This document shows positions 11,502 through 33,579 of a stretch of DNA of 33,579 nt, piece after piece. Position 1 is the stretch's first letter, and each line of letters begins with the position of its first letter. The DNA lies in the NCBI GenBank assembly GCA_015061845.1, contig SUVT01000020.1, positions 1 through 33,579 on the forward strand, written 5' to 3'. Origin of the DNA: Lentisphaerota bacterium (GTDB taxonomy: Bacteria > Verrucomicrobiota > Lentisphaeria > Victivallales > UBA1829). The notes under the pieces were generated by a model. It saw nothing but the letters and a program-made list of their open reading frames with translations. It did not search any database and was not told the DNA's origin. Both the position numbers and the translations under genes were made by a program.

Positions 11502-12989
11502 TTAACGTTTTACGGACGCTATGCCGAATTCACGTTTACTGTATATCCAGATACCAAGCAAGACAAGAGGAAGTCCCTTCAAGACAACTTGATAAAGGAT
11601 CACGGTTCCCATCATGGAAAGTTCAATCAATTCACCGTTCGCCACAAATTCAGACATTGAGAACTTCTGAACCGGAATCACAGCTGTTAAAAGAACCTGA
11701 CCGAAAATATATCCATACCGATCCATTGCCGGCATTGCGGCAACAGAATCATAATTCTTGATCGGGCTTTGGAGATACAGAGAAAACGCTCCATAAGCAA
11801 TATAACAAAGTGTAAAGAATATTGCGGTAGGCATGGAAAGGAAAGAAGCTGCTGAGAATGCAATCATGGTCACTACAAAAACACCGAGCCATTCCATAAA
11901 CACTGCACGGAGATAGTTATTGAAGAAACTGACCTCCTTGATCATAAGCTTCGGACCATCCTCCAACCGGAACTGAACAGGTTTTTGTGTAAGGTTGGTA
12001 AAGGTTACTTCCGCTTTTTTATCATGGATCATACGACCATCCGCATATTCAGACGGAAATTCCAGTTCATTTACAGATACGGTGAGATATTCCCCGATAC
12101 CATGATTCAGATAAGCGGCTCTGTAATCTTTCTTCGCATCTTGTCCGCTGCTATCCTTTGCCACATCGGATTTTACTTCAAAATGGTACAAACCGCCCCA
12201 GGCACCACTAACCCGTTCAGCAGTCTGAGATGTACTGTCGGTATAAATCCGGTAACGGATATAGAAGCTGCCTTTATAATCTTTCGGCAGATTTTCATAT
12301 ATCCAACGACGGGTGAGACCGGGTTTCACTTCAGAAAGACCGGCATAAACCTGCCGCTGGATTTCAGTCAGGATTTTCTTCTTCTGCTCTTCAGTATAAA
12401 CGTTATGAACAGGTTTTCCATCCGGACCTCTCTTTGCCATTTCTTCTTCATACCGCTTCTGTACCAAACCATTGATATCCGGAGCTTTCGGCATATAAAC
12501 GCGTCGTCCGGTCAGAAGTTCATTACTGATTTTATCCTGCTCGCGGCGGGCATTGGCAACCTCTTCCTTATTCTCCTTATCGGACACAATACCAGCCTTC
12601 TTGTACTGCCAGTTCACAAACCCATAGACAGCAAGAGAAGAAAGGAGAAGCAGAACGGTAAGAAGAAGCATGACTCCGGAAAATTTTCCGAGCCAGATAA
12701 CCGGTCTGGAAACCGGCTTGACCGCTATCATGTGAATCCGGTTATCTTCCAAATCCTGAGTCATCATCTGACACCCCAGCCAGATACCGGAAAGCATAAG
12801 CATCAATGAAATAAAGGAAAGACTGTATTCCAGAGAGACTTTGATAAATCCATAGGCAGAACCATCGCCTTTGATCGTGTTGGGGATAATAAGAATTCCC
12901 AGCAAGAGAATGACCAGCAAAAACTGAAACACATGAGAACGCAATGCGCCCCTGCATGTCAGCTTTACAATTGAGAAGTATGCAGACAT
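11502..12989 (-). CDS. ABC-2 family permease with a ~230-aa extracytoplasmic loop
   Basis: Three N-terminal and four C-terminal TM helices flank a large soluble loop. Lies 17 bp downstream of an ABC ATPase. Confidence 0.6.
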   Translation of the reverse strand: MSAYFSIVKLTCRGALRSHVFQFLLVILLLGILIIPNTIKGDGSAYGFIKVSLEYSLSFISLMLMLSGIWLGCQMMTQDLEDNRIHMIAVKPVSRPVIWLGKFSGVMLLLTVLLLLSSLAVYGFVNWQYKKAGIVSDKENKEEVANARREQDKISNELLTGRRVYMPKAPDINGLVQKRYEEEMAKRGPDGKPVHNVYTEEQKKKILTEIQRQVYAGLSEVKPGLTRRWIYENLPKDYKGSFYIRYRIYTDSTSQTAERVSGAWGGLYHFEVKSDVAKDSSGQDAKKDYRAAYLNHGIGEYLTVSVNELEFPSEYADGRMIHDKKAEVTFTNLTQKPVQFRLEDGPKLMIKEVSFFNNYLRAVFMEWLGVFVVTMIAFSAASFLSMPTAIFFTLCYIAYGAFSLYLQSPIKNYDSVAAMPAMDRYGYIFGQVLLTAVIPVQKFSMSEFVANGELIELSMMGTVILYQVVLKGLPLVLLGIWIYSKREFGIASVKR

Positions 12990-13006
12990 ACTGATCCTCC
13001 TACCGG

Positions 13007-14155
13007 TTATTTCTTATCGTCACTGGAGAACAGATCGGAAAGTTTCTTGTTGGCTTCGTCCAACTGCTGCTGTACAGCTTCATCGACAGGAGTTTCCGGA
13101 ACTTCTTCTTTTTCTTCCAGATCACTCAACATCTTCTGACTCTGCTCTGTCAAAACAGGAGCTGTCGGTTCAGGGACTTCTTCCACCGGTTCAGGTTCAA
13201 CTCCGGCAAGCCGGTCAAGTTTTGCCTTGCCTGTTTCAGAAATATCGCCATCAACGAGATAACTTGCGATTTCACCGCCGGAAGTTGCTCCGGAAGTAGA
13301 AATGCTTTCTTTCTTAGCATCATCCACAACATTGAGGAAGAAGTCTTCCAGCGTACGATGCGGGTGATCAATGGTAATTTCAGCATCTGTATTTTCGCGG
13401 ATAACAGCCTGAATTTTTTCCATGGCTTCCGGCGGAAGATCAGGAATGGTGATCCGGCTGGAAGTTTTCACGGAAAGCAGTTCTTCCATGGAACCTTCTG
13501 CACGGATCTTACCTCCGTAAAGAATGATCACACGGTCACAAACATCTTCCACATCGCTGAGAAGGTGACTTGTCACAAGGACAGTTTTTCCTCTGCGTTT
13601 CAGAAGAAGGATCAGATCTTTCACTTCACGGCAACCGATCGGGTCAAGTCCGCTGGTAGGTTCGTCCAGAATCAGAAACGCAGGGTCATTGATCATTGCC
13701 TGAGCAAGTCCGATACGGCGAGCCATACCTTTGGAAAACTCTCCGACCCGGCGGTTTGCAGCATGAGAGAGCCCAACCATGTCGAGCAGCTGCTCTGTAC
13801 GGGTTTTACGTTCCTTGGCGGAAAGTCCGAACAGAGAACCGAAGAAATCCAGTGTTTCGTAAGCTGTAAGATACTTGTAAAGATACGTTTCTTCAGGAAG
13901 ATAACCGATCATCCGTTTTGCATCAACACTGCGGGGAGATGTTCCGAAAACGCTCAAACGTCCACCTGTGGGGTAAAGCAGACCAAGCAGCATCTTCACT
14001 GTGGTGGATTTCCCGGATCCGTTCGGACCGAGAAGACCAAGGACTTCGCCCTCTCTGACTTCAAAATCAATATCATTGACGGCTTTAGCTTTGGGGCGGT
14101 TCCAGAAATCACGGAACTCTTTGACAAGTCCGACTGCTTCAACTACATTTGCCAT
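13007..14155 (-). CDS. ABC transporter ATP-binding protein with an acidic Pro/Glu-rich ~150-aa C-terminal tail
   Basis: Walker A GPNGSGKST, signature FSKGMARR, Walker B LILDEPTSGLD, H-loop TSHLL. The tail contains EPEPVEEVPEPTAPV...EEKEEVPETPVDE. GGAG RBS about 9 nt upstream, 26 bp after the P-type ATPase stop. Confidence 0.85.
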   Translation of the reverse strand: MANVVEAVGLVKEFRDFWNRPKAKAVNDIDFEVREGEVLGLLGPNGSGKSTTVKMLLGLLYPTGGRLSVFGTSPRSVDAKRMIGYLPEETYLYKYLTAYETLDFFGSLFGLSAKERKTRTEQLLDMVGLSHAANRRVGEFSKGMARRIGLAQAMINDPAFLILDEPTSGLDPIGCREVKDLILLLKRRGKTVLVTSHLLSDVEDVCDRVIILYGGKIRAEGSMEELLSVKTSSRITIPDLPPEAMEKIQAVIRENTDAEITIDHPHRTLEDFFLNVVDDAKKESISTSGATSGGEIASYLVDGDISETGKAKLDRLAGVEPEPVEEVPEPTAPVLTEQSQKMLSDLEEKEEVPETPVDEAVQQQLDEANKKLSDLFSSDDKK

Positions 14156-14181
14156 TTTCAGTTATACTCCACGGATAAATA

Positions 14182-16131
14182 TTATTTGGTCTGTTCCTGC
14201 TGCGATTCTGCAAGCGTGATATTCTCGCCTGTACGGACAAGACGTGCACTGTTAAAGATGACGATCAATGTACTGACCGTATGGAAAATTGCCGCAACAA
14301 CAGGGGTCAATTCTCCAAAGACAGACAGGATGATACCGCCGACGACGAAAATCATACCGAACGCAAGGTTCTGGCTGATCACTGAAGACATCTTCTTGGA
14401 AAGAGCGATCAACAGGGGAATACGGCGCAAGTCATTGTTCATTAATGCAATGGATGCACTGTTGATTGCAATGTCACTGCCGATTGCACGCATTGCAATA
14501 CTCAGGTTACCGGCAGCAAGCGCAGGAGCATCGTTCACACCATCCCCGACAAATGCAACCAGAGAGTCTTTCTTGACATTTTCAACATATTCCACTTTAC
14601 CTTCCGGCAGGCAGTCGCCCTGGAAATCATCAATACCGAGTGTCTTGGCAACTTCGCTTGCAACTGCAGCACGGTCACCGGTAACCATTGCACACTGACG
14701 GATTCCGGCAGCCTTCAATTCTTTGATCGTTTCAGCTGCTTCCGGACGGATCTTGTCACGGAAACCAAGCATACCCATCAATTTACCATTGCGGGCAATT
14801 CCGACAACACTCATGCCGATCACTTCTGTTTCATCCTGATCGATCACGATTCCCTGCTCAGCCATCCACTTTGTACGACCGACAACACAGGGGGCTCCGC
14901 CAATATTTGCGGTAACACCTTTTCCGTGAACTTCTTCATAATCAGTGCCTTCCGTCACCTTGATACCGACTTCTTTTGCAAGACGGAGGATCGCAAGAGC
15001 GGTCGGGTGGTTACTGCGGGATTCAACAGAGGCTGCAACCAGAAGCAATTCTGCCGGTTCAACACCTTCTACAGGACGGATCTTGGCAACAGCCAATTCA
15101 CCTTCTGTAAGAGTACCGGTTTTGTCAAACACAAATGTCTTGATCTTGGATGCAAGTTCCAGGTGGGTGATGTTCTTGATCAGAATACCGAGACGTGCTG
15201 CTGCAGCAACGGCTGCAACGACAGCGGTCGGAGTTGCAAGAACAACTGCACAGGGACATGCAATAACAAGCAGCGTGATCACACGGTTCATGTCTCCATC
15301 GGAGAACCACCAGGTGAGCATGGCAAGCATCAGGATCGTGGGGGTATAGAACGCTGCATATTTATCAATAAGACGAACGATTGGGCTCTTGCTGGACTCA
15401 GCGGCAAGAATCATTTCTTTCACTTTACCGAGGGTGGTATCATCACCGATCTTGGTGACACGGACTTCGATACCACCGGAAAGGTTCTGGGTACCGGCAT
15501 AAACTTCATCGCCAACAGCCTTATCAACAGGGAGAGATTCCCCGGTAATGGATGCCTGGTTCACCGCACTCTGACCTTCGATGATCTCACCATCGACCGG
15601 GAAGTTTTCACCGGGACGGACACTGATGACATCACCGATAGAAAGTTCAGCAGCTTCCACATCGGTGTAAGTACCGTCAGCATTCTTTTTATGGGCATCG
15701 TGAGGAGTCAACCGGAGGAGTTCTTCGATAGAACGCTGCGCTCCGGAAGCTGTTCTTGTTTCAATGATGATCGTGATCAGCAGGAAGAAAGAAATGATCC
15801 CTGCTTCACGGAATTCCTGTCCGGCAAATGCTGCAAGAATTGCAAGTGCAACGAGTTCATTCATATAAACCCGTCCGACACAAAGGTCTCTGACAGCAGC
15901 AATAAAGATCGGCAATGCCAGAACAATTGCCCCGATCACAGCACTGACTTCAGATGCGAAGGGCTGTTCCGGAAAGAACCATTCCAAAAGGAAAGAGTTC
16001 AAAACCAGGAAACCACCGACCGCAGCGAACGCAGCGCGCCCCATGCTGCGACCATGTCCGCGACCTTCGGACATCAATTCGCCGTTTTTGGCATCTTCTG
16101 TATGGTCATGTCCGCAGATACATACGCTCAT
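14182..16131 (-). CDS. P1B-type heavy-metal-translocating ATPase (CPC motif), no HMA domain, His/Cys-rich N-terminus
   Basis: DKTGTLT phosphorylation site, GDGVNDAPALA, TM CPC motif (IACPCAVVLATP), TGES-like ITGESLP. The N-terminus MSVCICGHDHTED is a short metal-binding tag. The start overlaps the stop of the upstream SPFH gene by 4 nt. Confidence 0.85.
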   Translation of the reverse strand: MSVCICGHDHTEDAKNGELMSEGRGHGRSMGRAAFAAVGGFLVLNSFLLEWFFPEQPFASEVSAVIGAIVLALPIFIAAVRDLCVGRVYMNELVALAILAAFAGQEFREAGIISFFLLITIIIETRTASGAQRSIEELLRLTPHDAHKKNADGTYTDVEAAELSIGDVISVRPGENFPVDGEIIEGQSAVNQASITGESLPVDKAVGDEVYAGTQNLSGGIEVRVTKIGDDTTLGKVKEMILAAESSKSPIVRLIDKYAAFYTPTILMLAMLTWWFSDGDMNRVITLLVIACPCAVVLATPTAVVAAVAAAARLGILIKNITHLELASKIKTFVFDKTGTLTEGELAVAKIRPVEGVEPAELLLVAASVESRSNHPTALAILRLAKEVGIKVTEGTDYEEVHGKGVTANIGGAPCVVGRTKWMAEQGIVIDQDETEVIGMSVVGIARNGKLMGMLGFRDKIRPEAAETIKELKAAGIRQCAMVTGDRAAVASEVAKTLGIDDFQGDCLPEGKVEYVENVKKDSLVAFVGDGVNDAPALAAGNLSIAMRAIGSDIAINSASIALMNNDLRRIPLLIALSKKMSSVISQNLAFGMIFVVGGIILSVFGELTPVVAAIFHTVSTLIVIFNSARLVRTGENITLAESQQEQTK

Positions 16132-17303
16132 TTTGCGGCCTCCTTACTCTTTTGAATAACGTTTTTGTCTGTCTTCGGTTCAGGATTGAGCTTCAGACGG
16201 ATTTCCTGTTTTCCGGATCCCAGAGAATTGACAACAAATTTATCGTTGACCTGTGCAAAGGCATCTGAAACTGCCTGCGTGAAGAGATCTACGATAACAG
16301 AGGACGGATTTTCCTGATACTTCGGCAAAAGCATCTTGAAGTAATTGGCATCGGCAGCCACTTCAGAAACAACTTTTGCACTGTAGTTCTCAGCTTCTGA
16401 AATCAGCACATTCTTTTCTGATTCTGCTGCAGCTTTCTGCTTGGAAGCATAAGCTCTTGCTTTGTCCTCTTCTGATTTTGCTTTTGTTTCAGCAGAAGTG
16501 ACTTCGTTGAACGCATTAATGGTTTGCGGAGGAGGACTCTTCACGCCCAGACTGACCGTCTCGACAGTGATACCGATCTTCAAGTCTGCAATCTGCTTTT
16601 TCACCAAGCGTTCCACTTCCATGCGGTACTCATTGGTTTTCTTGAAGATGATATCATTCACGTCCCACTTTGCAGTGACCTGCAGGACTGCGTTATCCAA
16701 CACATTCCGGAGCAGAGTTTTCGGTCCGCGAGTCCCGATTTCTTCCCCTTTATCATTCTTGAAAACGGTATCCGCTTCAGCCGGGACATCAGGCGTCATG
16801 CAGGTTTCATAATAACGTTTGGGAGCAGAGATTCTGTATGTCATACTCCAGGAGGTATGAATCACGCAGGCATCTGCAGTAATGAGATAACCATCAACGC
16901 CCGGAATCAGGGTTTCACCACCTTGAGGATTATTCTTCCGGTCTGTGATCAATTTTTCATTTGCAGGCATAAAAGTATTGCTTGTAATAGTCTGCGGGGT
17001 TGTCGGAATTTCAATGATCTTGCTGACGGGGAACGGGAACACCCAGTGCCAATCATCAGTGTAAAGCTCTTTGAATTTACCAAACTGCGTAACGATCACA
17101 GCAGTATCAGGACGGACTGTAAAGAAACCGCTGAACGTAAAGAACCAGATCAGCAGAATCAATATCAAGCTTGAAAGCAGGATAAACACCGCCTTCAAAC
17201 TCTTGACAAGCATATCCATTCCGGATGAAAAAACGCCATCACCCGAAACGTTTGTTGCTTCTGTCAATTCTTTATTTTCATTTTCCATTGTAGAATTCTC
17301 CAT
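16128..17303 (-). CDS. SPFH/band-7 protein, HflK-like
   Basis: N-terminal TM, SPFH core (TVRPDTAVIVTQFGKF...), C-terminal coiled coil rich in A/E/K. GGAG RBS. Lies 8 bp after the previous SPFH gene. Its stop overlaps the ATPase start. Confidence 0.7.
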   Translation of the reverse strand: MENSTMENENKELTEATNVSGDGVFSSGMDMLVKSLKAVFILLSSLILILLIWFFTFSGFFTVRPDTAVIVTQFGKFKELYTDDWHWVFPFPVSKIIEIPTTPQTITSNTFMPANEKLITDRKNNPQGGETLIPGVDGYLITADACVIHTSWSMTYRISAPKRYYETCMTPDVPAEADTVFKNDKGEEIGTRGPKTLLRNVLDNAVLQVTAKWDVNDIIFKKTNEYRMEVERLVKKQIADLKIGITVETVSLGVKSPPPQTINAFNEVTSAETKAKSEEDKARAYASKQKAAAESEKNVLISEAENYSAKVVSEVAADANYFKMLLPKYQENPSSVIVDLFTQAVSDAFAQVNDKFVVNSLGSGKQEIRLKLNPEPKTDKNVIQKSKEAAK

Positions 17304-17311
17304 CGGAAAGG

Positions 17312-18364
17312 TTATTTTTTCTTTGCTTCACCGTTGGAGGCAGAAGGCTTTTCACCGGATTTCTCAACTTCAGAGCTGAGAGAGTCGCCCAGCTTCAGAA
17401 TATCAAACGGCGCACAATTGGTATCGAGAATCAGGGTTGTCCGTTTTCCCATCAACCGTTTCATTGATTCCAATTTCCGGAGGAACATTGCAAGCTGAGG
17501 ATCAGCTTTGAATTCTGCGTAGTATTTGGCAGCAGCAGAGTCACCTTCTGCTCGGATCTTCTTCGCTTCTGCTTCCGCATTGGTCAGTGTATTGGTATAA
17601 TCATTGTCGGCTTTGGTCATGATCTCTTTTGCTTTGACTTCTCCCTGACTCTTGTATTTTTCTGCTTCGGTCTTACGTTCGGAAATCATGCGCTCTGCAA
17701 TTGCTTTTGCAGGTTCATCAGGCACACCGATGGTCCGGATGTTCACAGAAACGACTTCAAGCCCCCACTGTTCAAAAGCGGGAGGTGCAATCATTTCAAT
17801 CATTTCAGATTCCATATCACTGATTTTGATTTTGTCAGGATCGGAATTCACCAACTGATTGAATTCATACTTACCGATAATTGCACCTTTCGCAGAACGC
17901 ATAAGGATCCCAAGCTGATCTTCTGCAGTTGCAATGCTTCCACCGGCACTCTGGAATTTGATCAAATCTTTGATACGGAAAACGGTATAGATGGAAACAG
18001 TGATATTTTTTCCATCGCTGGTGGGAGTTTCTTCCAGCTTTCCAATATTTCCATCATAGCATCTGAGACGGGTATCGTACTTCATCACTTTCTGAATCGG
18101 ATAGGGCCAGCGGAAATGCAATCCGGGCTGTCTGACGACAGGATCGATTTTTCCCAGTGTAATAACAACAGCACGTTCCGTTGTCGGCACCTGATAAGAG
18201 AAGATTGCAATCAGAAAGATAATTGCCACAGCAAAGCCCAATAACATGATAGGGACATTGACATGCTTCTTCTTTGTTTCTGTTACCTTGTGATCGTGTT
18301 CATGCTCACATTTGCAATCTTTGTGATCATGATCATGATTGTGACCGCAGCAAGTTTCGGACAT
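17312..18364 (-). CDS. SPFH/band-7 protein, HflC-like, with a His/Cys-rich N-terminal metal-binding tag
   Basis: N-terminus MSETCCGHNHDHDHKDCKCEHEHDHK, then a TM helix and an SPFH domain (ERAVVITLGKIDPVV...HFRWPYPIQKV). HflC-like C-terminus (AEGDSAAAKYYAEFKADPQLAMFLRKLESM). Confidence 0.7.
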   Translation of the reverse strand: MSETCCGHNHDHDHKDCKCEHEHDHKVTETKKKHVNVPIMLLGFAVAIIFLIAIFSYQVPTTERAVVITLGKIDPVVRQPGLHFRWPYPIQKVMKYDTRLRCYDGNIGKLEETPTSDGKNITVSIYTVFRIKDLIKFQSAGGSIATAEDQLGILMRSAKGAIIGKYEFNQLVNSDPDKIKISDMESEMIEMIAPPAFEQWGLEVVSVNIRTIGVPDEPAKAIAERMISERKTEAEKYKSQGEVKAKEIMTKADNDYTNTLTNAEAEAKKIRAEGDSAAAKYYAEFKADPQLAMFLRKLESMKRLMGKRTTLILDTNCAPFDILKLGDSLSSEVEKSGEKPSASNGEAKKK

Positions 18365-18401
18365 TTTTCAAACTCCTGTATTTATGTTATTTTTTGTTTT
18401 T

Positions 18402-20363
18402 TCAGTTGATGTTACCGCCAAGATCAGCATCAAGGAGATCAAGCCGCGGTTTTTCTTCGGCATTGAGTTCCAGAATTTGATACGGGATCGTTGCGGATAA
18501 GATATATTTTCTCAAGTCGGCACAATCATTTTCAAGGAAAGAAAGATATGTGCGGAGCTTGAACATTGAGGGCATCGCTTTGTATGCAGCAAGCTTGCTC
18601 TGGAATTCACGGGCATCATATTCAGAGACCGTGGTACGTTTGTATTTGTAAGTATCAGCTTCCTGCTTGATCTGCATTTCTTTAACCTTGGCAGAAGCAT
18701 CTTTTTCAAGTTTGTATGTCTCAGCCTTTTCGATTTCGGTTTCCATCTTCTGTTCCGCAATGAAAACGCCCTGGAATGCAGCAGCAACATCCTTGACAGG
18801 AGGATGTGTTCCATTCAAATCGACGCTGAGGATCGTAACACCAAGATTCCATTCATCAGCACGTTTCTGAATGCGTTCAGTAAGGTTCTTCGTAATCTCT
18901 TTACGACCTTCCGCCAAGTCACGGTTAAAATCAGTACTTGCAAAATAAATTGTTGCTTCCTGGGTTCCGAGATCAAGCAGAGCCTGATCAACATTACGGT
19001 AATTCAGGAAATAATCCATGACCTTATCTTTATTGACTTTATAAGTCACAGGAAGCACAGCATTGAGCATAGATACGGCATTTCCAAGATCCTGACTGGA
19101 TCCGCTGTTCTTATCCGTTTTCTGCGCTGAACTGCTGTTTGCCACAAGGAAAGGCATTTCACCTTCTTCATGTTCTTTTGTCCAGAGAATCGTTTTCAAA
19201 GGAGCTTTCTCAGGCTGAGCTTTCGTGTCTTTTTTCGCTTCAACACCAATTGTTACAACACGGGGTTCATCGATCTTGATCCGGGAGATCTTGTCGCAGG
19301 GCCACGGAAGTTTGAAATAGAGACCGGGCTGAAGAGGTTCGGAAGAGACAAGCTTACCGAACCGGGTCTTGATTCCGACTTCTCCGGGTCCTACTTCCCC
19401 GATACATGTGAAAAGCCAGAAAACGACGAGCCAGACAAAAATTGCCGGGAGAGCGACTTTACAGAACTTCTGGAACAACCAGGTTCCGGAAACCTTAAAC
19501 CCGAACTGATAGTCAAGTGTATTTGCAATATTTTTCGCGACACTGCCCGGATCAATAAAGATCGCAAGAATACGGCTTTCATGTACCGGACGGTCTTCCA
19601 CTTGTGTTCTGGGACGATAGAATTCAGCGACGAAGCTGAAAATAAATTCCGCGCCGAGAATTGCCAATACAACAAAAACGACCTTTGCGATCGGGAGATC
19701 CCAACCCGGATTTTTATAATGAAGAGCAACAGCAGAAACAGCTGCCAGCAACCAAACAAAAGCTCCGGCAACAAACCAGGCTCCAATGGGACGCAGCCAG
19801 CGGAATTCATTCATCCGGCTCTGACCGGACAGAAACATCCCGGTGAAAAGTGCTACTGCAGCAGAAATCACACATACAAAAGCCAAAACCATCGGATTCT
19901 TCGGAGCGGGCAGCCCGACTGCGCCATAAGCTGCCGGTGTACCGTAGGCTTTGAGCAAGGAAAGGGCAACAAAAAGCAAAGCAATGATACAGAAAACCTG
20001 CGGAGCCTTTTTCAAATAATTGGCAAAGGTCCGTCCTGCGGTAAAACGAACATCTTCAGAGACATCCATAATACTGTGAAGAGACTCTTTCCGCTTCTTC
20101 AACAGTTCTTTTTCATACTCTTCTTCAGCTGCATTTCCGGACAGCAATCCGTAAAATATTGCAGCAACGCTGAAAATGACAGCAACACCAAAGGGAATCA
20201 CTCCCATAGTAAATGTCCCAATACCGCTCCAGCCATTACCATAACTGGCGATCAAAGCCAATATGGTAAAAAACAGAGACTCAATAAGAGCAAGAATTGC
20301 AAGTTTCATTGCAATTTTAGATCTCTCACTGCTTCCAGCATAATTTTTAATTCCGTCAGCCAT
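18402..20363 (-). CDS. polytopic membrane protein (~8 TM, ~300 aa) fused to a C-terminal SPFH/HflK-like domain
   Basis: AGGAG RBS. N-terminal half made of hydrophobic helices. C-terminal half GEVGIKTRFGKLVSSEPLQPGLYFKLPWP... then a coiled coil. First gene of the operon. Confidence 0.65.
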   Translation of the reverse strand: MADGIKNYAGSSERSKIAMKLAILALIESLFFTILALIASYGNGWSGIGTFTMGVIPFGVAVIFSVAAIFYGLLSGNAAEEEYEKELLKKRKESLHSIMDVSEDVRFTAGRTFANYLKKAPQVFCIIALLFVALSLLKAYGTPAAYGAVGLPAPKNPMVLAFVCVISAAVALFTGMFLSGQSRMNEFRWLRPIGAWFVAGAFVWLLAAVSAVALHYKNPGWDLPIAKVVFVVLAILGAEFIFSFVAEFYRPRTQVEDRPVHESRILAIFIDPGSVAKNIANTLDYQFGFKVSGTWLFQKFCKVALPAIFVWLVVFWLFTCIGEVGPGEVGIKTRFGKLVSSEPLQPGLYFKLPWPCDKISRIKIDEPRVVTIGVEAKKDTKAQPEKAPLKTILWTKEHEEGEMPFLVANSSSAQKTDKNSGSSQDLGNAVSMLNAVLPVTYKVNKDKVMDYFLNYRNVDQALLDLGTQEATIYFASTDFNRDLAEGRKEITKNLTERIQKRADEWNLGVTILSVDLNGTHPPVKDVAAAFQGVFIAEQKMETEIEKAETYKLEKDASAKVKEMQIKQEADTYKYKRTTVSEYDAREFQSKLAAYKAMPSMFKLRTYLSFLENDCADLRKYILSATIPYQILELNAEEKPRLDLLDADLGGNIN

Positions 20364-27066: not shown

Positions 27067-27095
27067 TTGACTTTTATGATAAACATGTATATATT
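27067..27095 (+). promoter_or_regulatory. putative sigma70 promoter for the ECF sigma factor gene
   Basis: TTGACT (27067-27072), 17-nt spacer, TATATT (27090-27095), about 30 nt upstream of the AGAGGGA RBS and the TTG start at 27134. Confidence 0.3.
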
Positions 27096-27133: not shown

Positions 27134-27730
27134 TTGAAACGCAGTTTGACGACAGACAGTAAGTTATTGGGACAGTTGGCAGCTGAAGATGAGCAGGCAT
27201 GGAGCGAATTCCATTCAAAATACAGAAAAATGATCTGTTCTATCGGTAAAAAACGCGGTATTTCTCCCGATGAGACGGAAGATCTTATTCAGGAAGTTAT
27301 GCTGATTTGCTGCCGACGGATCAAGGAATTTACATACGACAGGGAGAAAGGACATTTCCGTTCCTATCTTACAGCAATTATACATAATGTGTCGTGGCAG
27401 CTGCAGCGTAAAAGAAAAAATCCGCCTCCGGTGGATACGGAATATGATGACAGTATCGATAAACTTTTCATGGAGCAGTATGAAAAGTTTCTGATCAATG
27501 CCCTTATGAAAAAGCTGAAAGAGCGGGTCAACAGTCAAACCTTTTCAACTTTTGAAATGCTTTATATCCAGCAGCTTCCGGTAGAGGAGGTCTGTAAAAT
27601 CACAAGAAAAAGCCCCGGTGCGGTCTACCTGATCAAAATGAGATGCCTGCGAATCCTGCGTCAATGTATCGCAGAAATCCCGGAAGCAGCCGACCGGCTC
27701 GGAAGAGATAACTCCAGCAAAAATGCCTGA
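27134..27730 (+). CDS. ECF-type RNA polymerase sigma factor (sigma-70 regions 2 and 4)
   Basis: Region 2 DLIQEVMLICCRRIKEF...FRSYLTAIIHNVSWQLQRKR and region 4 HTH LPVEEVCKITRKSPGAVYLIKMRCLRILRQ. Likely a TTG start preceded by an AGAGGGA RBS. Its 3' end overlaps the convergent kinase gene by 70 nt. Confidence 0.7.
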   Translation: MKRSLTTDSKLLGQLAAEDEQAWSEFHSKYRKMICSIGKKRGISPDETEDLIQEVMLICCRRIKEFTYDREKGHFRSYLTAIIHNVSWQLQRKRKNPPPVDTEYDDSIDKLFMEQYEKFLINALMKKLKERVNSQTFSTFEMLYIQQLPVEEVCKITRKSPGAVYLIKMRCLRILRQCIAEIPEAADRLGRDNSSKNA

Positions 27731-30558
27731 CTGATCTGCAGAGCGCAATATTCTCCGTCCACCAGACCGATTGAGGCAGAGTGCAGGCTGTTCCGGTAAA
27801 CAGTTCCTTTGAGTTCCAATGAAGAATCAAATTTTGATCCATCGGAGAAAACCCATTTATCATATCTCCAAGTACCGCCAAGCATGATATTTTTCTCTTT
27901 CCAGGGAGTTAATTCTTTCCGGAACAAAGCCTGCAATTCCGGAGTTTTCGGCTCTGCCAGTTTTCCGCCAAGCAGTTCTGCGACCCGGCGCAGCACATGG
28001 TTGTGAGTTCTGTACGGGAATAGAACATAAAGTTTTCCCTTGTGTTCAAAGGAATGGAGAACCGCCGGATGTTTTCGGATCCGTTCGGGATTTTTCCGGT
28101 TCTTATACTCGTCTGCGGTCCACTGGCAGATCGCCCCCGTGGCATCCGCCCGCTTGAAACACTGGATGCGTCCGCCAAGAAATACCAGACACCACCGTTT
28201 GAAATTCGGGAAAGGCGGAAGAGGAAAGCCGGTGTAAGGTTTTCCATCCGGACGCCGCCATTTTCCATCTGCAAAGAAGCCGTCTATATTAACATGAAAA
28301 CTGTTGGTTTCAAAAAATTTATTTTGCAGCTTCTTCAGAAGCTCTCCGGACTCCGGAACAAAGAGCCTGCCGCCAAGGAAGGAACAGATCTGACGGGCAG
28401 AATCCTGTCTGATCGAGGATTCATTACTTGTCAATACTTCATATATTTTCCCTTCATGATCAAGCTGACGGGATCCATGTGTCCAAAGGTGTTTTTCAAA
28501 GAACTCCATCGAACCGGGAGCAACAACGATCCGGCTTCCGACGTAAGGCGGCAGAAATTGATACTTCAAGTAAAGGGAATGTTTTTCCGGATCTACGGAG
28601 TTGCTGTTATACCATCCGCCGCTGATCCGGGCGCAATAATCATCCGGTTTCGCGGAATCTGCCATTGTGATTTCCATTACATTGCCCGCCATATCATAGA
28701 TCCCAAGATTATTCGGGAGCCCGGATGACACCGGATGGATATACCCTTTGGATTCTTTTTTCAACAATTTTGTGGGCGTTCCTTCTCCAGCCCAGGCACC
28801 ACGGTAAACCCACTCCCATTCACTGGTCTGCATCGGACGGAATATAAAACCATCCGGCAGCCGTCCCTGTTGTCTCATAATGATCGTCAATTCCCGGCAA
28901 TAACTTAAAAGATCGTTCCATGTGAACTTGGTCATTGGCAAATCAGGATGCGCTGAAGTCATGGGCATTTTCAGAACGCCGGTAAAATGATCCATGCGGA
29001 TCTCTCCATCATTACACCAGAAAGCGTTCTTGATCCGGACGATTTTTCCTTTTTTATTGCGATAAGATCCTGCGGGGACATAAACGAATTTAAAACGGAG
29101 GCTTGCCTCTGTCAAAAAATCTTTTTCCGGTTGAAGATTTCTGTCTGAAGGATAAATTTTTGTCTCAAGAGACTTCAATTTTTTCATTACCTTGGATTTT
29201 TTCTCCTCTGCGATCCATTTTCCCAACGGAGAGAGGAACAGACCCCTGACACCGGATGAAATTCTATGGATCTTATCCACATTTCCGCTGATTGGTATTT
29301 CCGGGATCCCCTTTAATGCAATTTCCCGGATCCTGGAATCGATTTTCTTGAGAATTTCCAATCTTTTTTCATAATCCAACGGCAGAGATTTCAACGCTGT
29401 TCTTATTTTTTCAGTTTCCTTTTCTCCTGCGAATGCTGCAATCTGATCAAATAATACAGTTCCATTTTCCTGAATGGATTTTTCCAGAGTTTCACATGCC
29501 TGCAACAACTCCTGCTGACGTTTTTGTTTTTCCTTTTCCGCTTTCAGAGATCGCTCATTTTCCAGTTTCTGAAGTTCCAACTCTTGAGCCATTTCCCGTT
29601 TTTTCTCTTCAAACAGACGTTCCGTTTCCATCTTTTGTTTCTGGATGTAAAAATAGGATCCGCATATTCCGGAAACGAGGAAAAACAACAGAAAAAGGAA
29701 CAAAATCAACATTGCGCCCGGATGTGCAAGCCGCCATTGCAGAAAAGACTCTCTCATCAAATCCAATTTTGTCGGTTTGATCAATGTTTGTGGAAGTGCC
29801 TGAGAGAATTCTTCGACAGAATGAAAGCGGTGTTTCGGGTTATTCTCGCAAACTCTGGTCAAAACCGGCCATAATTGACGTCTGACACTTAAAGGAAGAT
29901 CTGAAGGCAGATAAGGATAACGGGAAGCGGCTTCTCCGGTTACCGCCACATATAAAACCTTTCCCAGAGCATAAATATCCCGTTCGCAGGTATTCAGATT
30001 CAAACCATTGAAACATTCATGCGGAAGATATCCGAGTGTCCCGACAAAAGATACGGTCGCATCTATCTCGCATACCAGCCCCGGATCACATAATTTCGGG
30101 ACATTATCAACAAAAATAATATTTTCCGGCTTGATATCCCGATGGATCAGGTCTGATTTATGCAGAACATCCAAACCGGAAGCCAGAGAGTGAATCATTG
30201 TAAGGGCTTCATCCGGCTGCATTTTCCGGGAGGCAGCCAACACTGCAGACAGTGTTTTCGGAACATATGTTCCGCCGGCTTCTTCCAATGGATCCGCTGC
30301 CTCCATGATATAATACAGGAAATCATTTTCCACTCCCGCATGATAAATCTGAATCAGATTCGGACAATCCCTGGCAACCTGAATATATTTCCGGATCCCC
30401 CGAAGCTCACGTTCCGTGTCCGGGATTGAGACGATCTTCAAAGCAACCATCCGGTCAAGCGCATCTTTGGCAAGGTAGACAGTCCCCATGCCGCCGTGAC
30501 CGCACATGGTTATAATGCGGCAGCCTGCAAATATATCACCCTGTTTCAAGTTGATCAT
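27661..30558 (-). CDS. Ser/Thr protein kinase with TM segment, coiled coil, FGE-sulfatase-like domain and two C-type-lectin-like domains (965 aa)
   Basis: Kinase motifs GHGGMGTVY, VALKIV, HRDIKPENI, DPG, GTLGYLPHE. TM helix LILFLFLLFFLVSGICG. Coiled coil rich in E/K/Q. FGE-like domain FKFVYVPAGSY...NNLGIYDMAGNVMEIT...RISGGWYNS with no Cys pair. Two CTLD-like segments (ARQICSFLGGRLFVPESGEL...CQW and VAELLGGKLAEPKT...GEYCALQ). The start overlaps the upstream ABC ATPase stop by 4 nt. Confidence 0.8.
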   Translation of the reverse strand: MINLKQGDIFAGCRIITMCGHGGMGTVYLAKDALDRMVALKIVSIPDTERELRGIRKYIQVARDCPNLIQIYHAGVENDFLYYIMEAADPLEEAGGTYVPKTLSAVLAASRKMQPDEALTMIHSLASGLDVLHKSDLIHRDIKPENIIFVDNVPKLCDPGLVCEIDATVSFVGTLGYLPHECFNGLNLNTCERDIYALGKVLYVAVTGEAASRYPYLPSDLPLSVRRQLWPVLTRVCENNPKHRFHSVEEFSQALPQTLIKPTKLDLMRESFLQWRLAHPGAMLILFLFLLFFLVSGICGSYFYIQKQKMETERLFEEKKREMAQELELQKLENERSLKAEKEKQKRQQELLQACETLEKSIQENGTVLFDQIAAFAGEKETEKIRTALKSLPLDYEKRLEILKKIDSRIREIALKGIPEIPISGNVDKIHRISSGVRGLFLSPLGKWIAEEKKSKVMKKLKSLETKIYPSDRNLQPEKDFLTEASLRFKFVYVPAGSYRNKKGKIVRIKNAFWCNDGEIRMDHFTGVLKMPMTSAHPDLPMTKFTWNDLLSYCRELTIIMRQQGRLPDGFIFRPMQTSEWEWVYRGAWAGEGTPTKLLKKESKGYIHPVSSGLPNNLGIYDMAGNVMEITMADSAKPDDYCARISGGWYNSNSVDPEKHSLYLKYQFLPPYVGSRIVVAPGSMEFFEKHLWTHGSRQLDHEGKIYEVLTSNESSIRQDSARQICSFLGGRLFVPESGELLKKLQNKFFETNSFHVNIDGFFADGKWRRPDGKPYTGFPLPPFPNFKRWCLVFLGGRIQCFKRADATGAICQWTADEYKNRKNPERIRKHPAVLHSFEHKGKLYVLFPYRTHNHVLRRVAELLGGKLAEPKTPELQALFRKELTPWKEKNIMLGGTWRYDKWVFSDGSKFDSSLELKGTVYRNSLHSASIGLVDGEYCALQISQAFLLELSLPSRSAASGISAIH

Positions 30559-31256
30559 CGTTGAAATCTCATCCCTTCGTTAACTCTGTAAATCTCGTGA
30601 AAAAGTCTTTCGGAAAAGATCTCTCCGGGAGCCCCACTCTGATACAGAGAACCATCATTCAAAAACAGAGTTTCATCAAGATACTCTCTCGAAACAAAAA
30701 CATCATGCGTAACCATGATCACACACTTTCCCCCGTTTGCCAGCTCCTTGAGGATACCATAAAAATGATGCTGGTTTCCGATATCCAGAGAACTGAACGG
30801 TTCATCAAGCAGAAGGACAGGAGTATCCTGAACAAGAACCCGTGCCAGCATCACCCGCTGTTTTTCCCCGCCGCTCAAGGTGCTGTAAATCCGGTTCTGT
30901 AAAGGGATCAGATTCAACCGTTCCAGAATCGGCTCGATAGAAAAAGATTTTCCGGATTTCCGCCATGGGTAACGTCCCAGCTCCACAACATCCCGAACCG
31001 TAAGAGGGATCAACTCCGGACATTGCTGCTCCATGAAACCAATCATCCGCGCCCGCTCTTCTGCTGTTTTATAACAGGGAAAAACCGTTCCGCTTTCCGG
31101 TTTGAGTTCCCCGGTGATCAGCCTCAGCAATGTGCTTTTTCCACTGCCGTTTGCACCGAAAACCCCATAGAACTTTCCGGCAGAGAATTGATAACTGAAC
31201 TCTTTCAGGACAGAAGTTTTGCCGTAAGAAAATTGAATATTCTTCAACTCAATCAT
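30555..31256 (-). CDS. ABC importer ATP-binding protein (FecE/FepC/BtuD family)
   Basis: Walker A GANGSGKST, signature LSGGEKQR, Walker B LLLDEPFSSLD, TVRDVVELGRYP typical of iron-chelate/B12 ATPases. The start MIELKNIQF at 31256 overlaps the permease stop, so the longer track ORF reaching 31304 is unlikely. Confidence 0.8.
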   Translation of the reverse strand: MIELKNIQFSYGKTSVLKEFSYQFSAGKFYGVFGANGSGKSTLLRLITGELKPESGTVFPCYKTAEERARMIGFMEQQCPELIPLTVRDVVELGRYPWRKSGKSFSIEPILERLNLIPLQNRIYSTLSGGEKQRVMLARVLVQDTPVLLLDEPFSSLDIGNQHHFYGILKELANGGKCVIMVTHDVFVSREYLDETLFLNDGSLYQSGAPGEIFSERLFHEIYRVNEGMRFQR

Positions 31257-32205
31257 GATGTTTCCTCCGGCGCAAAAGCAGAATAAAGAAGAAAGGTCCG
31301 CCAAAAGCAGAAGTCAGAATTCCAACCGGGATCTCGTGGGGAACATAAATCATTCTTGCCAGAAGATCCGCCAGCAAAAGAAATATTCCGCCGACCAGAA
31401 TCGAAGCCGGAAGAACAGAAGAGAATTTTGACCCGGAAAAACTGCGGACAATATGAGGAACTGCCAAGCCGATAAAACCGATCACGCCGCAGCAGCTGAC
31501 ACAGCTTGCAGTCATCAATGCAATCGCTGTCAGAACGATTGGTTTTACCTTTTTCAAAGGAACACCCGAAAGAGCTGCTCCGCGGTCGCCCAGTAGAAGC
31601 ATATCCATTTCCGTTGAAAATGCGCTGAGAAGACATATTCCTGCCGCAAACGAACAACTGAGCAGAATCACATCGTTCCACCCGGCCCGCCAGAACCCGC
31701 CAAGCATCCAGAAAACAATCGAGGAAAGTCTCTCGTCTGCCAGATAAAGAACGCCGGAAGTCAGCGATGCGGCAAACGCATTCACGGCAACACCGGCAAG
31801 CAGTAATGCTGCACTGTCCCATGCTAAACGTCTGCCCGGAAGAAATATCAAAAGCAATGCGAAAATTGCAAAGAGGAAAGAAAAAATGACAGACGGGATC
31901 GGAAGAAACATTCCGAAAACTGCGCCCAGAGCTGCGGCATAAATCACGCCGAGAACATGAGGAGATGCCAAATCATTCCGGAACAGATTCTGGGCGGCAG
32001 CACCTGATGCGGCAAGCATACCGCCGGTCAGAAATGCTGCGAGCAGACGGGGTAAACGGATCTCCAAAAGAATGGTACGCGCAGATTCCGGTACATCTTG
32101 TCCGGAAAGCAGACGGAACAGGTCGGAATATCCGCACTCCCCTGCCCCTGCTCCCCAGAGCAGGATAAAAAACGGAACGATTGCGATGTACCAGAAATAT
32201 TTCAC
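31249..32205 (-). CDS. FecCD-family ABC permease (BtuC/FepD-like)
   Basis: 318 aa with about 9 TM helices. EIRLPRLLAAFLTGGMLAASGAAAQNLFRN and LTSAFGGPFFFILLLRR are the FecCD hallmark motifs. Confidence 0.8.
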   Translation of the reverse strand: MKYFWYIAIVPFFILLWGAGAGECGYSDLFRLLSGQDVPESARTILLEIRLPRLLAAFLTGGMLAASGAAAQNLFRNDLASPHVLGVIYAAALGAVFGMFLPIPSVIFSFLFAIFALLLIFLPGRRLAWDSAALLLAGVAVNAFAASLTSGVLYLADERLSSIVFWMLGGFWRAGWNDVILLSCSFAAGICLLSAFSTEMDMLLLGDRGAALSGVPLKKVKPIVLTAIALMTASCVSCCGVIGFIGLAVPHIVRSFSGSKFSSVLPASILVGGIFLLLADLLARMIYVPHEIPVGILTSAFGGPFFFILLLRRRKHHD

Positions 32206-32206
32206 G

Positions 32207-32941
32207 TTACACTCCGGCTATGATCTCAACATTGAAACGGTCATCCCGTGCGGTCAAATCCAATGCTTCTTCTGAGGTAAGATGGGATGCTCCGACTTTT
32301 GTCATATAACTGAGACACAACGCTTTGGCTTGTTCCATCTGCTCCACCGTCGGACGCTGATAATCCAATCCGGGAACCGGAATATACCCCATAATGTGAA
32401 ACGGAATATTTTTATCCAGAGACGAGAGATATTTCAGCACGCCTTCCATTTCATCAAGTTCAATCAAGCCGGGGATATAGATCATGCTTGCAGAGAGTTC
32501 CATTCCGGCATCAAAAGCTCTGGAAAAATTATCAAAAATCAATGATTTCGGACGTCCGGTCAGCTTCAGATGCAATTCATCGCTCCATGCTTTGAAGCCG
32601 ATATTTGCGGCATCCAGAAAGGGGATCTGCAAGTTGCTTCCGTTCGTATGACCGAGTTTTGTGTATGCTCCAAGTTCATTTTTTGCGAAGTCGACCATTT
32701 CCTGAAGTTCTTTTGCAACGGTCGGTTCGCCACCCATAAAATAAACTTTTCCGGGTTTGGCATCCAGCAAAGCTGTTTTTTGTTCCTCAACACTCAAAAA
32801 ACGTTCCGGCTTCGGATATGCAAAACCGCTTTTCCCTCCGCGCAATTTATAGCTGCAGAACGGACAATGGAAGGTACATCCCCAGTTGTGGAGAGTGGCG
32901 AAATCATATTTTTTATTCCGGGTGATCCGATAAAAGGACAT
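32207..32941 (-). CDS. small radical SAM protein of unknown function
   Basis: CTFHCPFC (CxxxCxxC) at residues 22-29, then GGEPT. 244 aa. Lies between the binding-protein and permease genes with gaps of 1-2 nt. Confidence 0.65.
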   Translation of the reverse strand: MSFYRITRNKKYDFATLHNWGCTFHCPFCSYKLRGGKSGFAYPKPERFLSVEEQKTALLDAKPGKVYFMGGEPTVAKELQEMVDFAKNELGAYTKLGHTNGSNLQIPFLDAANIGFKAWSDELHLKLTGRPKSLIFDNFSRAFDAGMELSASMIYIPGLIELDEMEGVLKYLSSLDKNIPFHIMGYIPVPGLDYQRPTVEQMEQAKALCLSYMTKVGASHLTSEEALDLTARDDRFNVEIIAGV

Positions 32942-32943
32942 TC

Positions 32944-33579
32944 TTATTTCTCCCTGATAATTTGTTCTCTGAAAAATCTGATTGCTTCCAGCGGTTCGAT
33001 GCCTTCTGTGATCAAACGGCGGGGGACTGCGTGGATCCTGTTATTTTTTACCGCCGGAAACTCTGAAAAGCCCGGACGGTTCCGGATCTCTTCTGCAGAA
33101 GAACTGCCTTCAACATAAAAAATGATCTCCGGCTGATGTTCCAACAGACTTTCTGTACTGATCAAACCGGTCTTTTTATTCAAAACAACACCGCCCGCAT
33201 GAGCAAGCAAATCTCCTGTATAACTCTCTTCACCAACAGATTTCAACGGACCGTAAAGTTCAAAATAAACAGCCTTTTTCTTTTCCGGTTTCGGGATCGC
33301 CGACAGTTCTTTCCGGAATACGGCGCAAAGTTCCTCTGCTCGCTCTTTTTTTCCAGTCAAATCCCCCAGACGGCGAACCAGTGCGGGATAATCCCGGAGA
33401 CGGAAAGGCTGAACTTCCATAACTTGAATTCCTTTCCTGCGAAAATCCTGTGCGGCATCCTGCTGATAAGTCCACAAAATAACGCAATCAATGCCAAGTG
33501 CTGCAATTTTTTCTCTGGAAACTGCGCTTCCTTTTCCAATGACTGCTGGTTCCGGCTTTCCGGCGGCAATTCTTCCATA
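32944..33579 (-). CDS. periplasmic substrate-binding protein of chelate/cobalamin ABC importers (BtuF/FepB cluster A), N-terminus off the window edge
   Basis: Manual translation continues upstream of the track's TTG: ...GRIAAGKPEPAVIGKGSAVSREKIAALGIDCVILWTYQQDAAQDFRRKGIQVMEVQPF...LTGKKERAEEL... This matches the BtuF pattern (PDLVL...G..V.........L..LTG...A). No stop before the window end. Confidence 0.6.
   Translation of the reverse strand, partial: YGRIAAGKPEPAVIGKGSAVSREKIAALGIDCVILWTYQQDAAQDFRRKGIQVMEVQPFRLRDYPALVRRLGDLTGKKERAEELCAVFRKELSAIPKPEKKKAVYFELYGPLKSVGEESYTGDLLAHAGGVVLNKKTGLISTESLLEHQPEIIFYVEGSSSAEEIRNRPGFSEFPAVKNNRIHAVPRRLITEGIEPLEAIRFFREQIIREK

Follow-up and report, generated by a model that had tools for sequence, protein, structure and literature searches.

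Gene order and junctions at the locus

We analyzed a stretch of 33,579 nucleotides (nt) of DNA from a Lentisphaerota bacterium (contig SUVT01000020.1 of assembly GCA_015061845.1), which is called the window below. At its right end, on the minus strand, the genes of an ATP-binding cassette (ABC) importer run directly into the gene of a transmembrane Ser/Thr kinase (STK) of the Hanks type, and the kinase gene converges with a gene for a sigma factor of the extracytoplasmic function (ECF) type. The subject of this study is the linkage of importer and kinase, which had been proposed to be a designed connection of chelate uptake to ECF signalling. The comparison with related genomes favours a recent, lineage-restricted operon fusion.

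According to the listing of open reading frames (ORFs) and a base-by-base reading of the junctions, the minus-strand order is the substrate-binding protein, a radical SAM (rSAM) protein, a FecCD permease, an ATPase, and the Hanks kinase of 965 amino acids (aa). The binding-protein and rSAM genes are joined as TAA-GA-ATG with a gap of 2 nt, and the rSAM and permease genes as TAA-C-GTG with a gap of 1 nt. At the next junction, ATGATTGA, the end of the permease gene and the start of the ATPase gene share 8 nt, and at the junction of ATPase and kinase, CGATGATC, the overlap consists of the 4 nt ATGA. An earlier note on this stretch, made from the letters alone, had read the same order and the same junctions, and our reading confirms them; the gene families that it named were recovered with Pfam (Peripla_BP_2, Radical_SAM, FecCD, ABC_tran, and Pkinase). 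The features are listed in Table 1. For the ATPase we take the ATG at 31256 as the start and consider the TTG at 31304, with which the mechanical ORF begins, an unlikely one. In the case of the kinase, the ATG at 30558 lines up in the alignment with the conserved N-terminus of 26 homologues.

Table 1. Positions of the genes, protein regions, and sites discussed in the text, in window coordinates.
Feature	Position	Strand	Evidence
Binding-protein gene, 3' two-thirds	32944..33579 (cut by window end)	-	Pfam Peripla_BP_2, E=3.6e-19
rSAM gene, 244 aa	32207..32941	-	Pfam Radical_SAM, E=6.5e-12
FecCD/BtuC-type permease gene, 318 aa, GTG start	31249..32205	-	Pfam FecCD, E=1.4e-79
ABC ATPase gene, 233 aa	30555..31256	-	Pfam ABC_tran, E=8.1e-29
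ATGA junction, kinase start codon over ATPase stop codon	30555..30558	-	sequence reading
Kinase gene, 965 aa	27661..30558	-	Pfam Pkinase and FGE-sulfatase
Cytoplasmic Hanks-type Ser/Thr kinase domain, about aa 1-270	29749..30558	-	Pfam Pkinase at aa 19-210, E=5e-28
Single hydrophobic transmembrane segment, aa 281-305	29644..29718	-	top Kyte-Doolittle windows at aa 277-301; sequence GAMLILFLFLLFFLVSGICGSYFYI
Extracytoplasmic sensor region of the kinase	27661..29076	-	FGE-sulfatase fold at about aa 495-690, C-type lectin-like domain, further conserved C-terminal domain
3'-end overlap of the convergent kinase and sigma genes, 70 nt	27661..27730	.	stop codons located
ECF-type sigma-70 family gene, 198 aa, convergent with the kinase gene	27134..27730	+	Pfam Sigma70_r2
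Housekeeping-type promoter-like site TTGACT-17-TATATT upstream of the sigma gene	27067..27095	+	promoter scan

Twenty-two contigs with an identical rSAM were read, and 19 of them were collapsed with one contig, L001, for having mostly the same neighbouring genes (L with a number denotes a locus throughout). The full order of importer, kinase, and sigma genes was found in two independent assemblies, L001 (ENA) and L002 (JGI). In L001, the longer contig, the operon is seen to begin one gene upstream of the binding protein, beyond the window end, with a DUF1559 gene of prepilin-like type. The product, of 223 aa, has an N-terminal methylation motif of the prepilin type as well as a DUF1559 (SBP_bac_10) region. 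At its 3' end the gene abuts on or overlaps that of the binding protein, which is complete in L001 (9186-9998) and encodes about 270 aa, including a lipoprotein-like signal peptide. The whole cassette lies at 8525-12387 of L001, and 30555-33579 of the window is its 3' part.

Conservation of the importer-kinase linkage

The five-gene cassette (DUF1559 protein, Peripla_BP_2 lipoprotein, rSAM, FecCD permease, and ATPase) was found to be common across Lentisphaeria, with near-identical junctions. The same internal junctions occur in five other lineages (L104-106, L107, L108/109, L110, and L111), in which the identity of the rSAM to that of the window runs from 87% down to 58%. The ATPase gene is the last gene of the cassette in all five, and it is followed there by a convergent gene or by an unrelated gene on the same strand after a gap of 67 nt or about 100 nt; the only exceptions are the window species and one sister lineage. 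The locus L104 shares the upstream synteny of the window lineage (Fe-ADH, an SH3-like gene, and two small divergent genes) but departs from it directly after the ATPase gene, so that a rearrangement breakpoint can be put at the 3' end of that gene.

Importer and kinase follow each other in this order only in the window species (L001 and L002) and in the sister lineage L101/L102, whose kinase and ATPase are 90% and 85% identical to those of the window. The order in the sister lineage is pilin-like gene, binding protein, rSAM, permease, ATPase, kinase, and convergent sigma gene. At the other kinase loci tested, with kinase identities of 59-26%, tblastn with the binding protein, the rSAM, and the permease found nothing, and tblastn with the ATPase gave a single distant partial match, in L094, some 4 kb downstream of its kinase gene. 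In L103 (59% kinase identity) the kinase is separated by an AT-rich spacer of 308 nt from a divergent upstream gene, without an importer, and a promoter-like site matching at 11 of 12 positions, with an extended -10 element, lies about 110 nt upstream of the kinase start. The gene upstream of the kinase is AP_endonuc_2 or a lipoprotein gene in the group with 48% kinase identity (L004, L005, L088, and L089), a flavodoxin gene in L006 (34%), and other unrelated genes at further loci.

Several kinases of the family begin only 19-68 nt behind unrelated co-directional genes, which argues against a specific functional tie of the kinase to the importer; a place behind whatever gene lies upstream seems to be usual for kinases of this family. 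As one unit, importer and kinase are absent both from the other kinase loci and from the five cassette lineages. The earlier note had itself named a lack of conserved linkage as evidence against its proposal, and the conservation of this neighbourhood indeed ends with the nearest sister lineage.

The junction also differs between the two lineages that share the order. In the sister lineage the ATPase gene ends with ...AAG ATT TGA, which is followed by a spacer of 20 nt holding AAAGGAAGAG and then by the kinase ATG. In the alignment of window 30559-30580 with L101 4755-4789 the window is 12 nt shorter, and it has neither that stop codon nor the Shine-Dalgarno-like AAAGGAAGAG run, so that the ATPase frame continues for a few codons (…EGMRFQR) to the TGA overlapping the kinase ATG. 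That is, the "translational coupling" at the ATGA is taken to reflect a small indel within the last approximately 10% of protein divergence, and not a maintained feature; since the comparison is one of the window with its sister lineage, the direction of the 12-nt change is not polarized by an outgroup. Overlaps of 4 bases are the commonest overlap class of co-directional bacterial genes. The two junctions illustrate on a small scale, in nature, that a short indel can alter the junction of neighbouring genes.

We then considered transcription. A consensus scan of the window revealed no promoter-like or terminator-like site on the minus strand at 30555-31300, a stretch that includes 30555-30600, where the earlier note had said that an internal promoter and terminator would speak against its proposal, and the sole promoter-like match in L101 overlaps the kinase start codon itself. 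Because the junction holds neither kind of site, the kinase is probably co-transcribed with the importer in the window organism. The idea that uptake and signalling are co-expressed is plausible as far as a shared transcript in this organism is concerned; that they form a functional unit is not supported, as the linkage is not conserved. Upstream of the cassette, a TTGATT-17-TATATT promoter-like site lies about 45 nt before the DUF1559 gene and is kept in two related lineages. Two to three small genes (57-134 aa) without a Pfam match are divergent from this importer promoter (L001 7476-8394; L104 4575-5380); kept between the window lineage and L104, they could include a local regulator.

The kinase-sigma pair and the importer cassette

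The association of the kinase with the sigma gene behaved differently from its association with the importer. A sigma homologue with 30-86% identity adjoins the kinase in all 16 loci where both genes were located. In 13 of the 16 the two genes are convergent with a 3' overlap of 34-116 nt, as computed from the true stop codons, and in 3 they lie on the same strand; the convergent overlap was seen down to a kinase identity of about 27%. With overlapping convergent 3' ends each transcript is antisense to the end of the other gene, and in the window the kinase transcript must reach into the sigma gene as antisense RNA over 70 nt or more. Since the sigma gene is convergent with the kinase gene, the two are not co-transcribed. 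Among the closer relatives (kinase identity 48-90%) the sigma C-terminus is conserved, and the window sigma factor scored 63.2 bits against the sigma70-ECF model of NCBIfam (TIGR02937; cut-off 42.9). No anti-sigma family of Pfam was found among the called neighbours of the kinase-sigma loci, a look that small unannotated ORFs fall outside. The conserved partner of the kinase is the neighbouring ECF sigma gene, a link that is well supported and that the earlier note had also drawn.

Several ECF groups are known in which a Ser/Thr kinase takes the place of the anti-sigma factor, namely ECF43, ECF59-62, ECF217, ECF267, and ECF283 (PMC7826278). Activation by phosphorylation has been shown for EcfP/PknT of Vibrio parahaemolyticus and is supported by a phosphomimetic mutant for EcfK/PknS of Xanthomonas citri (PMC8999054). 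As in these STK-regulated systems, the window sigma gene adjoins a transmembrane Hanks kinase with no anti-sigma among the called neighbours, and the synteny of sigma and kinase is conserved. Direct phosphorylation of EcfK by PknS is reportedly the subject, by its title, of a 2026 paper (PMC13147305).

The promoter-like site upstream of the sigma gene is also of the housekeeping type. Equivalent TTGxxx-17-TATATT sites were seen by eye upstream of the sigma gene in L101, L004, L006, L090, L094, L096, and L099 (TATAAT in L096), which makes eight loci with the window lineage. These sites fit a sigma gene that is transcribed constitutively and whose product is controlled after translation, and in this respect the family again resembles the STK-regulated ECF systems. 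A shared, autoregulated promoter of ECF type for sigma, kinase, and importer was rejected, since the sigma upstream regions hold housekeeping-type sites and there was no ECF motif to search.

There are also clear differences. ECF43 lacks the acidic DAED-like motif of sigma region 2.2, whereas the window family keeps it (ETEDL in the region of aa 44-52 of the window sigma factor; DCDDL, DLEDL, and ECDEL in the family), so that it falls outside the EcfP/PknT type. The Thr of the window ETED is not conserved in the family. Near the N-terminus, at aa 5-8, a Thr-Thr is conserved (LTTDS, YTTRS), and this is a candidate phospho-acceptor different from that of ECF43. In contrast to the STK-regulated ECF systems, the window kinase and sigma genes are convergent with overlapping 3' ends and are not co-transcribed, the kinase ectodomain joins a formylglycine-generating enzyme (FGE) fold to C-type lectin-like domains, and the family was seen only in Lentisphaeria.

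The kinase has the residues expected of a Hanks kinase, K41, H139-R-D-I-K-P-x-N146, D158-P-G, and P179-x-E181, which are invariant in 27 family members. In its ectodomain, Pfam FGE-sulfatase matches aa 532-632 (E=7.1e-10). When an ectodomain profile was compared with the PDB, the FGE fold matched PorK/GldK, a T. denticola protein, and SUMF2, and the C-type lectin part matched Mincle, Dectin-1, and DEC-205; PF00059 is precomputed in the kinase homologues P0028 and P0032. These matches bear out the earlier description of a receptor kinase with a lectin/FGE ectodomain, and the FGE fold and lectin-like domains suggest that the ligand is a glycan or another surface molecule and not a metal chelate. 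A conserved C-terminal domain follows at about aa 703-950, and the tail past the conserved ...LLELPLE motif varies among the family members.

All full-length kinase homologues with a source name come from metagenome-assembled genomes of Lentisphaerae, Lentisphaeria, or Victivallales. The window itself belongs to an uncultured member of the Lentisphaeria, in the PVC group. A scan of a genome collection with the full kinase alignment and the generic HRDIKPxN pattern returned unrelated kinases of many phyla, with L008 and L085 as the Lentisphaeria among the matches listed, and a metagenome scan with the alignment of the ectodomain only gave 13 specific loci. A literature search on FGE-domain kinases with sigma factors found nothing relevant. 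As a further observation, about 1.4 kb beyond the family pair L006 holds a second pair at 12157-17143, a co-directional sigma gene (Sigma70_r4_2) with a Pkinase/TPR gene, and the same region holds a stand-alone FGE-sulfatase protein; pairs of kinase and sigma genes and FGE domains appear to be expanded in genomes of this type.

The importer is a type II ABC importer. Its Peripla_BP_2, FecCD, and ABC_tran matches lie far above the Pfam gathering scores, and its tight junctions are kept in six lineages. Like BtuCDF, FecBCDE, and HmuTUV, it combines a Peripla_BP_2 protein, a FecCD permease, and an ATPase in one tight operon. Unlike them, the cassette adds the prepilin-like DUF1559 protein and the small rSAM as conserved members, carries no cobalamin riboswitch, and reaches no equivalog model at cut-off.

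The substrate had earlier been proposed to be a chelate or cobalamin, with a B12 riboswitch to be looked for upstream of the binding-protein gene. No Rfam match was obtained in the window or in the upstream region of L001 (7400-10100) at E<=1, and in the five cassette loci only a tRNA reached the Rfam gathering score, with no cobalamin riboswitch. Among the equivalog models of NCBIfam for heme, B12, siderophore, and citrate transport, none reached its cut-off with the importer proteins: the best match of the ATPase was the heme ABC ATPase model (192.7 bits; cut-off 261), the binding protein matched IsdE and BtuF weakly and below cut-off, and the BtuC, BtuD, and BtuF models all stayed under theirs. 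A cobalamin importer is not borne out by these results.

A different substrate is pointed to by the flanks of the cassette in other lineages. A NikR gene directly adjoins the cassette in three distant lineages (L107 4816-5524, L110 3826-4495, and L111 2681-3343; NikR_C E=5.9e-26 in L107). The promoter regions there hold a palindrome TATTAC-N13-GTAATA, which is exact in L107 (from 5279) and L111 (from 3226) and has 1 mismatch in L110. These palindromes resemble the NikR consensus, GTGTTAC-N13/14-GTAACAC (PMC545781). Because NikR genes flank the cassette in these three lineages, nickel or a nickel complex is our best guess for the substrate of the importer family, and the flanks suggest nickel rather than B12 or iron chelates. 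Nickel importers of the FecCD type exist, for example NiuBDE, which Fischer et al. in 2016 reportedly described as such in Helicobacter. The family is like NiuBDE and the NikR-regulated transporters in its FecCD type, in the adjacent NikR genes of three Lentisphaeria lineages, and in the NikR-box-like palindromes. Unlike the NikR-regulated transporters, the cassette of the window lineage lacks both a neighbouring NikR gene and a clean NikR box, with only a box of 3 mismatches overlapping the -10 element, and NiuBDE is not known to include an rSAM or a pilin-like gene. A gene for a CobW-type metallochaperone lies near the cassette in L111.

The rSAM carries its CxxxCxxC motif at C22/C26/C29, and its homologues, of 244-247 aa, are 58-98% identical across Lentisphaeria; those with a source name are from Lentisphaerae, Lentisphaeria, or Victivallales, with one from Oligosphaeraceae. 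A structure model (pLDDT 92.5) had the pyruvate formate-lyase activating enzyme (PFL-AE) as its closest fold (TM 0.70; Foldseek E=2e-11). The window rSAM is like PFL-AE in size, in fold, and in the N-terminal motif. Unlike it, the rSAM shows an identity of just 16%, has no glycyl-radical enzyme gene nearby, and lies far below the cut-offs of all NCBIfam activase models. The attempt to name the rSAM by sequence or fold was given up, as only generic radical SAM cores were matched, the closest being PFL-AE, viperin, and MoaA.

Interpretation of the arrangement

We consider that two independently conserved modules came to lie side by side through a recent, lineage-restricted rearrangement, and that the coupling at the junction is a by-product and not a conserved design; we give this reading a probability of roughly 0.7. 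One module would be the five-gene importer operon with its promoter of the housekeeping type upstream of the DUF1559 gene, and the other the transmembrane Hanks kinase with its convergent ECF sigma gene. A rearrangement in the ancestor shared by the window species and its sister lineage would have put the second module directly behind the importer ATPase gene. A later indel of 12 nt at the junction would then separate the ATGA overlap of the window from the 20-nt spacer of the sister lineage. In the window organism the kinase would most likely be transcribed by read-through from the importer promoter, and it may be translated by coupling or by termination and reinitiation at the ATGA. Its ectodomain is predicted to bind an extracytoplasmic, possibly glycan-like, ligand, upon which the kinase may phosphorylate and activate the constitutively transcribed sigma factor, as in STK-regulated ECF systems. 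The fusion thus looks like a by-product of genome compaction and not like a conserved regulatory design.

Several points weigh against this reading. The juxtaposition of importer and kinase has outlasted the divergence of two lineages (85% for the ATPase and 90% for the kinase), and such persistence is compatible with weak selection for the arrangement. The interval in which the fusion occurred is sampled by one sister lineage and one relative at 59% only. The promoter scan used a sigma-70-type consensus, which may not be that of Lentisphaeria, and an internal promoter of another type within the ATPase gene is possible. Both the co-transcription and the translational coupling are read from the sequence alone. 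The phosphorylation of the sigma factor is likewise putative, and as the DAED-like motif is kept, the mechanism of ECF43 would not be directly transferable.

If the internal promoter just mentioned exists, in the 3' part of the ATPase gene and of a type that a consensus scan does not see, the adjacency of importer and kinase could be purely physical and the operon only apparent. The promoter-like site of the kinase in the relative L103 favours this, and the gaps of 19-68 nt to unrelated upstream genes suggest that kinases of the family may often have their promoters inside the coding sequence of the gene before them; the restriction of the scan to the sigma-70 consensus leaves room for it. On the other hand, the kinase strand has no promoter-like match between 30559 and 31300, the sole match of L101 overlaps the start codon, and without a terminator read-through from the importer would happen regardless. 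We therefore regard an adjacency of this kind as rather unlikely. The fusion could instead be adaptive, in that the kinase was recruited into the importer operon, its dose tracks metal or chelate starvation, and nutrient status gates the ECF response; transcripts running on into the convergent sigma gene could also give rise to antisense RNA against it. The ATGA overlap, the junction without promoter-like or terminator-like sites, the order kept in two lineages at 85-90% protein identity, and the kinase transcript running antisense into the sigma gene over 70 nt or more all agree with such a recruitment. Nevertheless, the arrangement is not conserved beyond the sister lineage, the overlap itself differs there, the place at the tail of an operon is not specific to the importer because kinases of the family trail unrelated genes, and nothing ties the FGE/lectin ectodomain to a metal chelate. 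An adaptive fusion seems unlikely to us for these reasons, and a designed link of uptake and signalling, as first proposed, is not supported.

A related possibility, which we think quite doubtful, is that an importer operon that is possibly metal-regulated has captured the kinase, that the sigma mRNA is also affected by antisense transcription, and that a new wiring of uptake to the ECF response is seen at an early stage; if this were true, kinase abundance would follow metal starvation through newly evolved uptake-to-ECF wiring. An assembly chimera or a sequencing artefact at the junction can hardly be believed and was rejected: the contigs with an identical rSAM were read, L001 and L002 from independent sources agree, and the sister lineage has the same order in two further assemblies.

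For the reading that we prefer, that of two modules brought together recently, the lesson is one of caution, since a 4-nt overlap alone does not prove a functional unit. Two leads that arose as by-products may outweigh the original claim about importer and kinase in value. One is the Lentisphaeria-wide set of FGE/lectin sensor kinases that are paired with ECF sigma factors via conserved convergent 3' overlaps, and the other is the conserved importer cassette with its unexplained rSAM and prepilin-like protein, flanked by NikR in several lineages.

Elsewhere in the window, on the minus strand at 14182-20363, three SPFH/Band_7 proteins in a row are followed by a P-type (E1-E2) ATPase. The SPFH/Band_7 protein at 17312-18364 and the P-type ATPase start with Cys/His-rich stretches (MSETCCGHNHDHDHKDCKCEHEHDH... 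and MSVCICGHDHTED...), and these features suggest a metal-handling membrane cluster.

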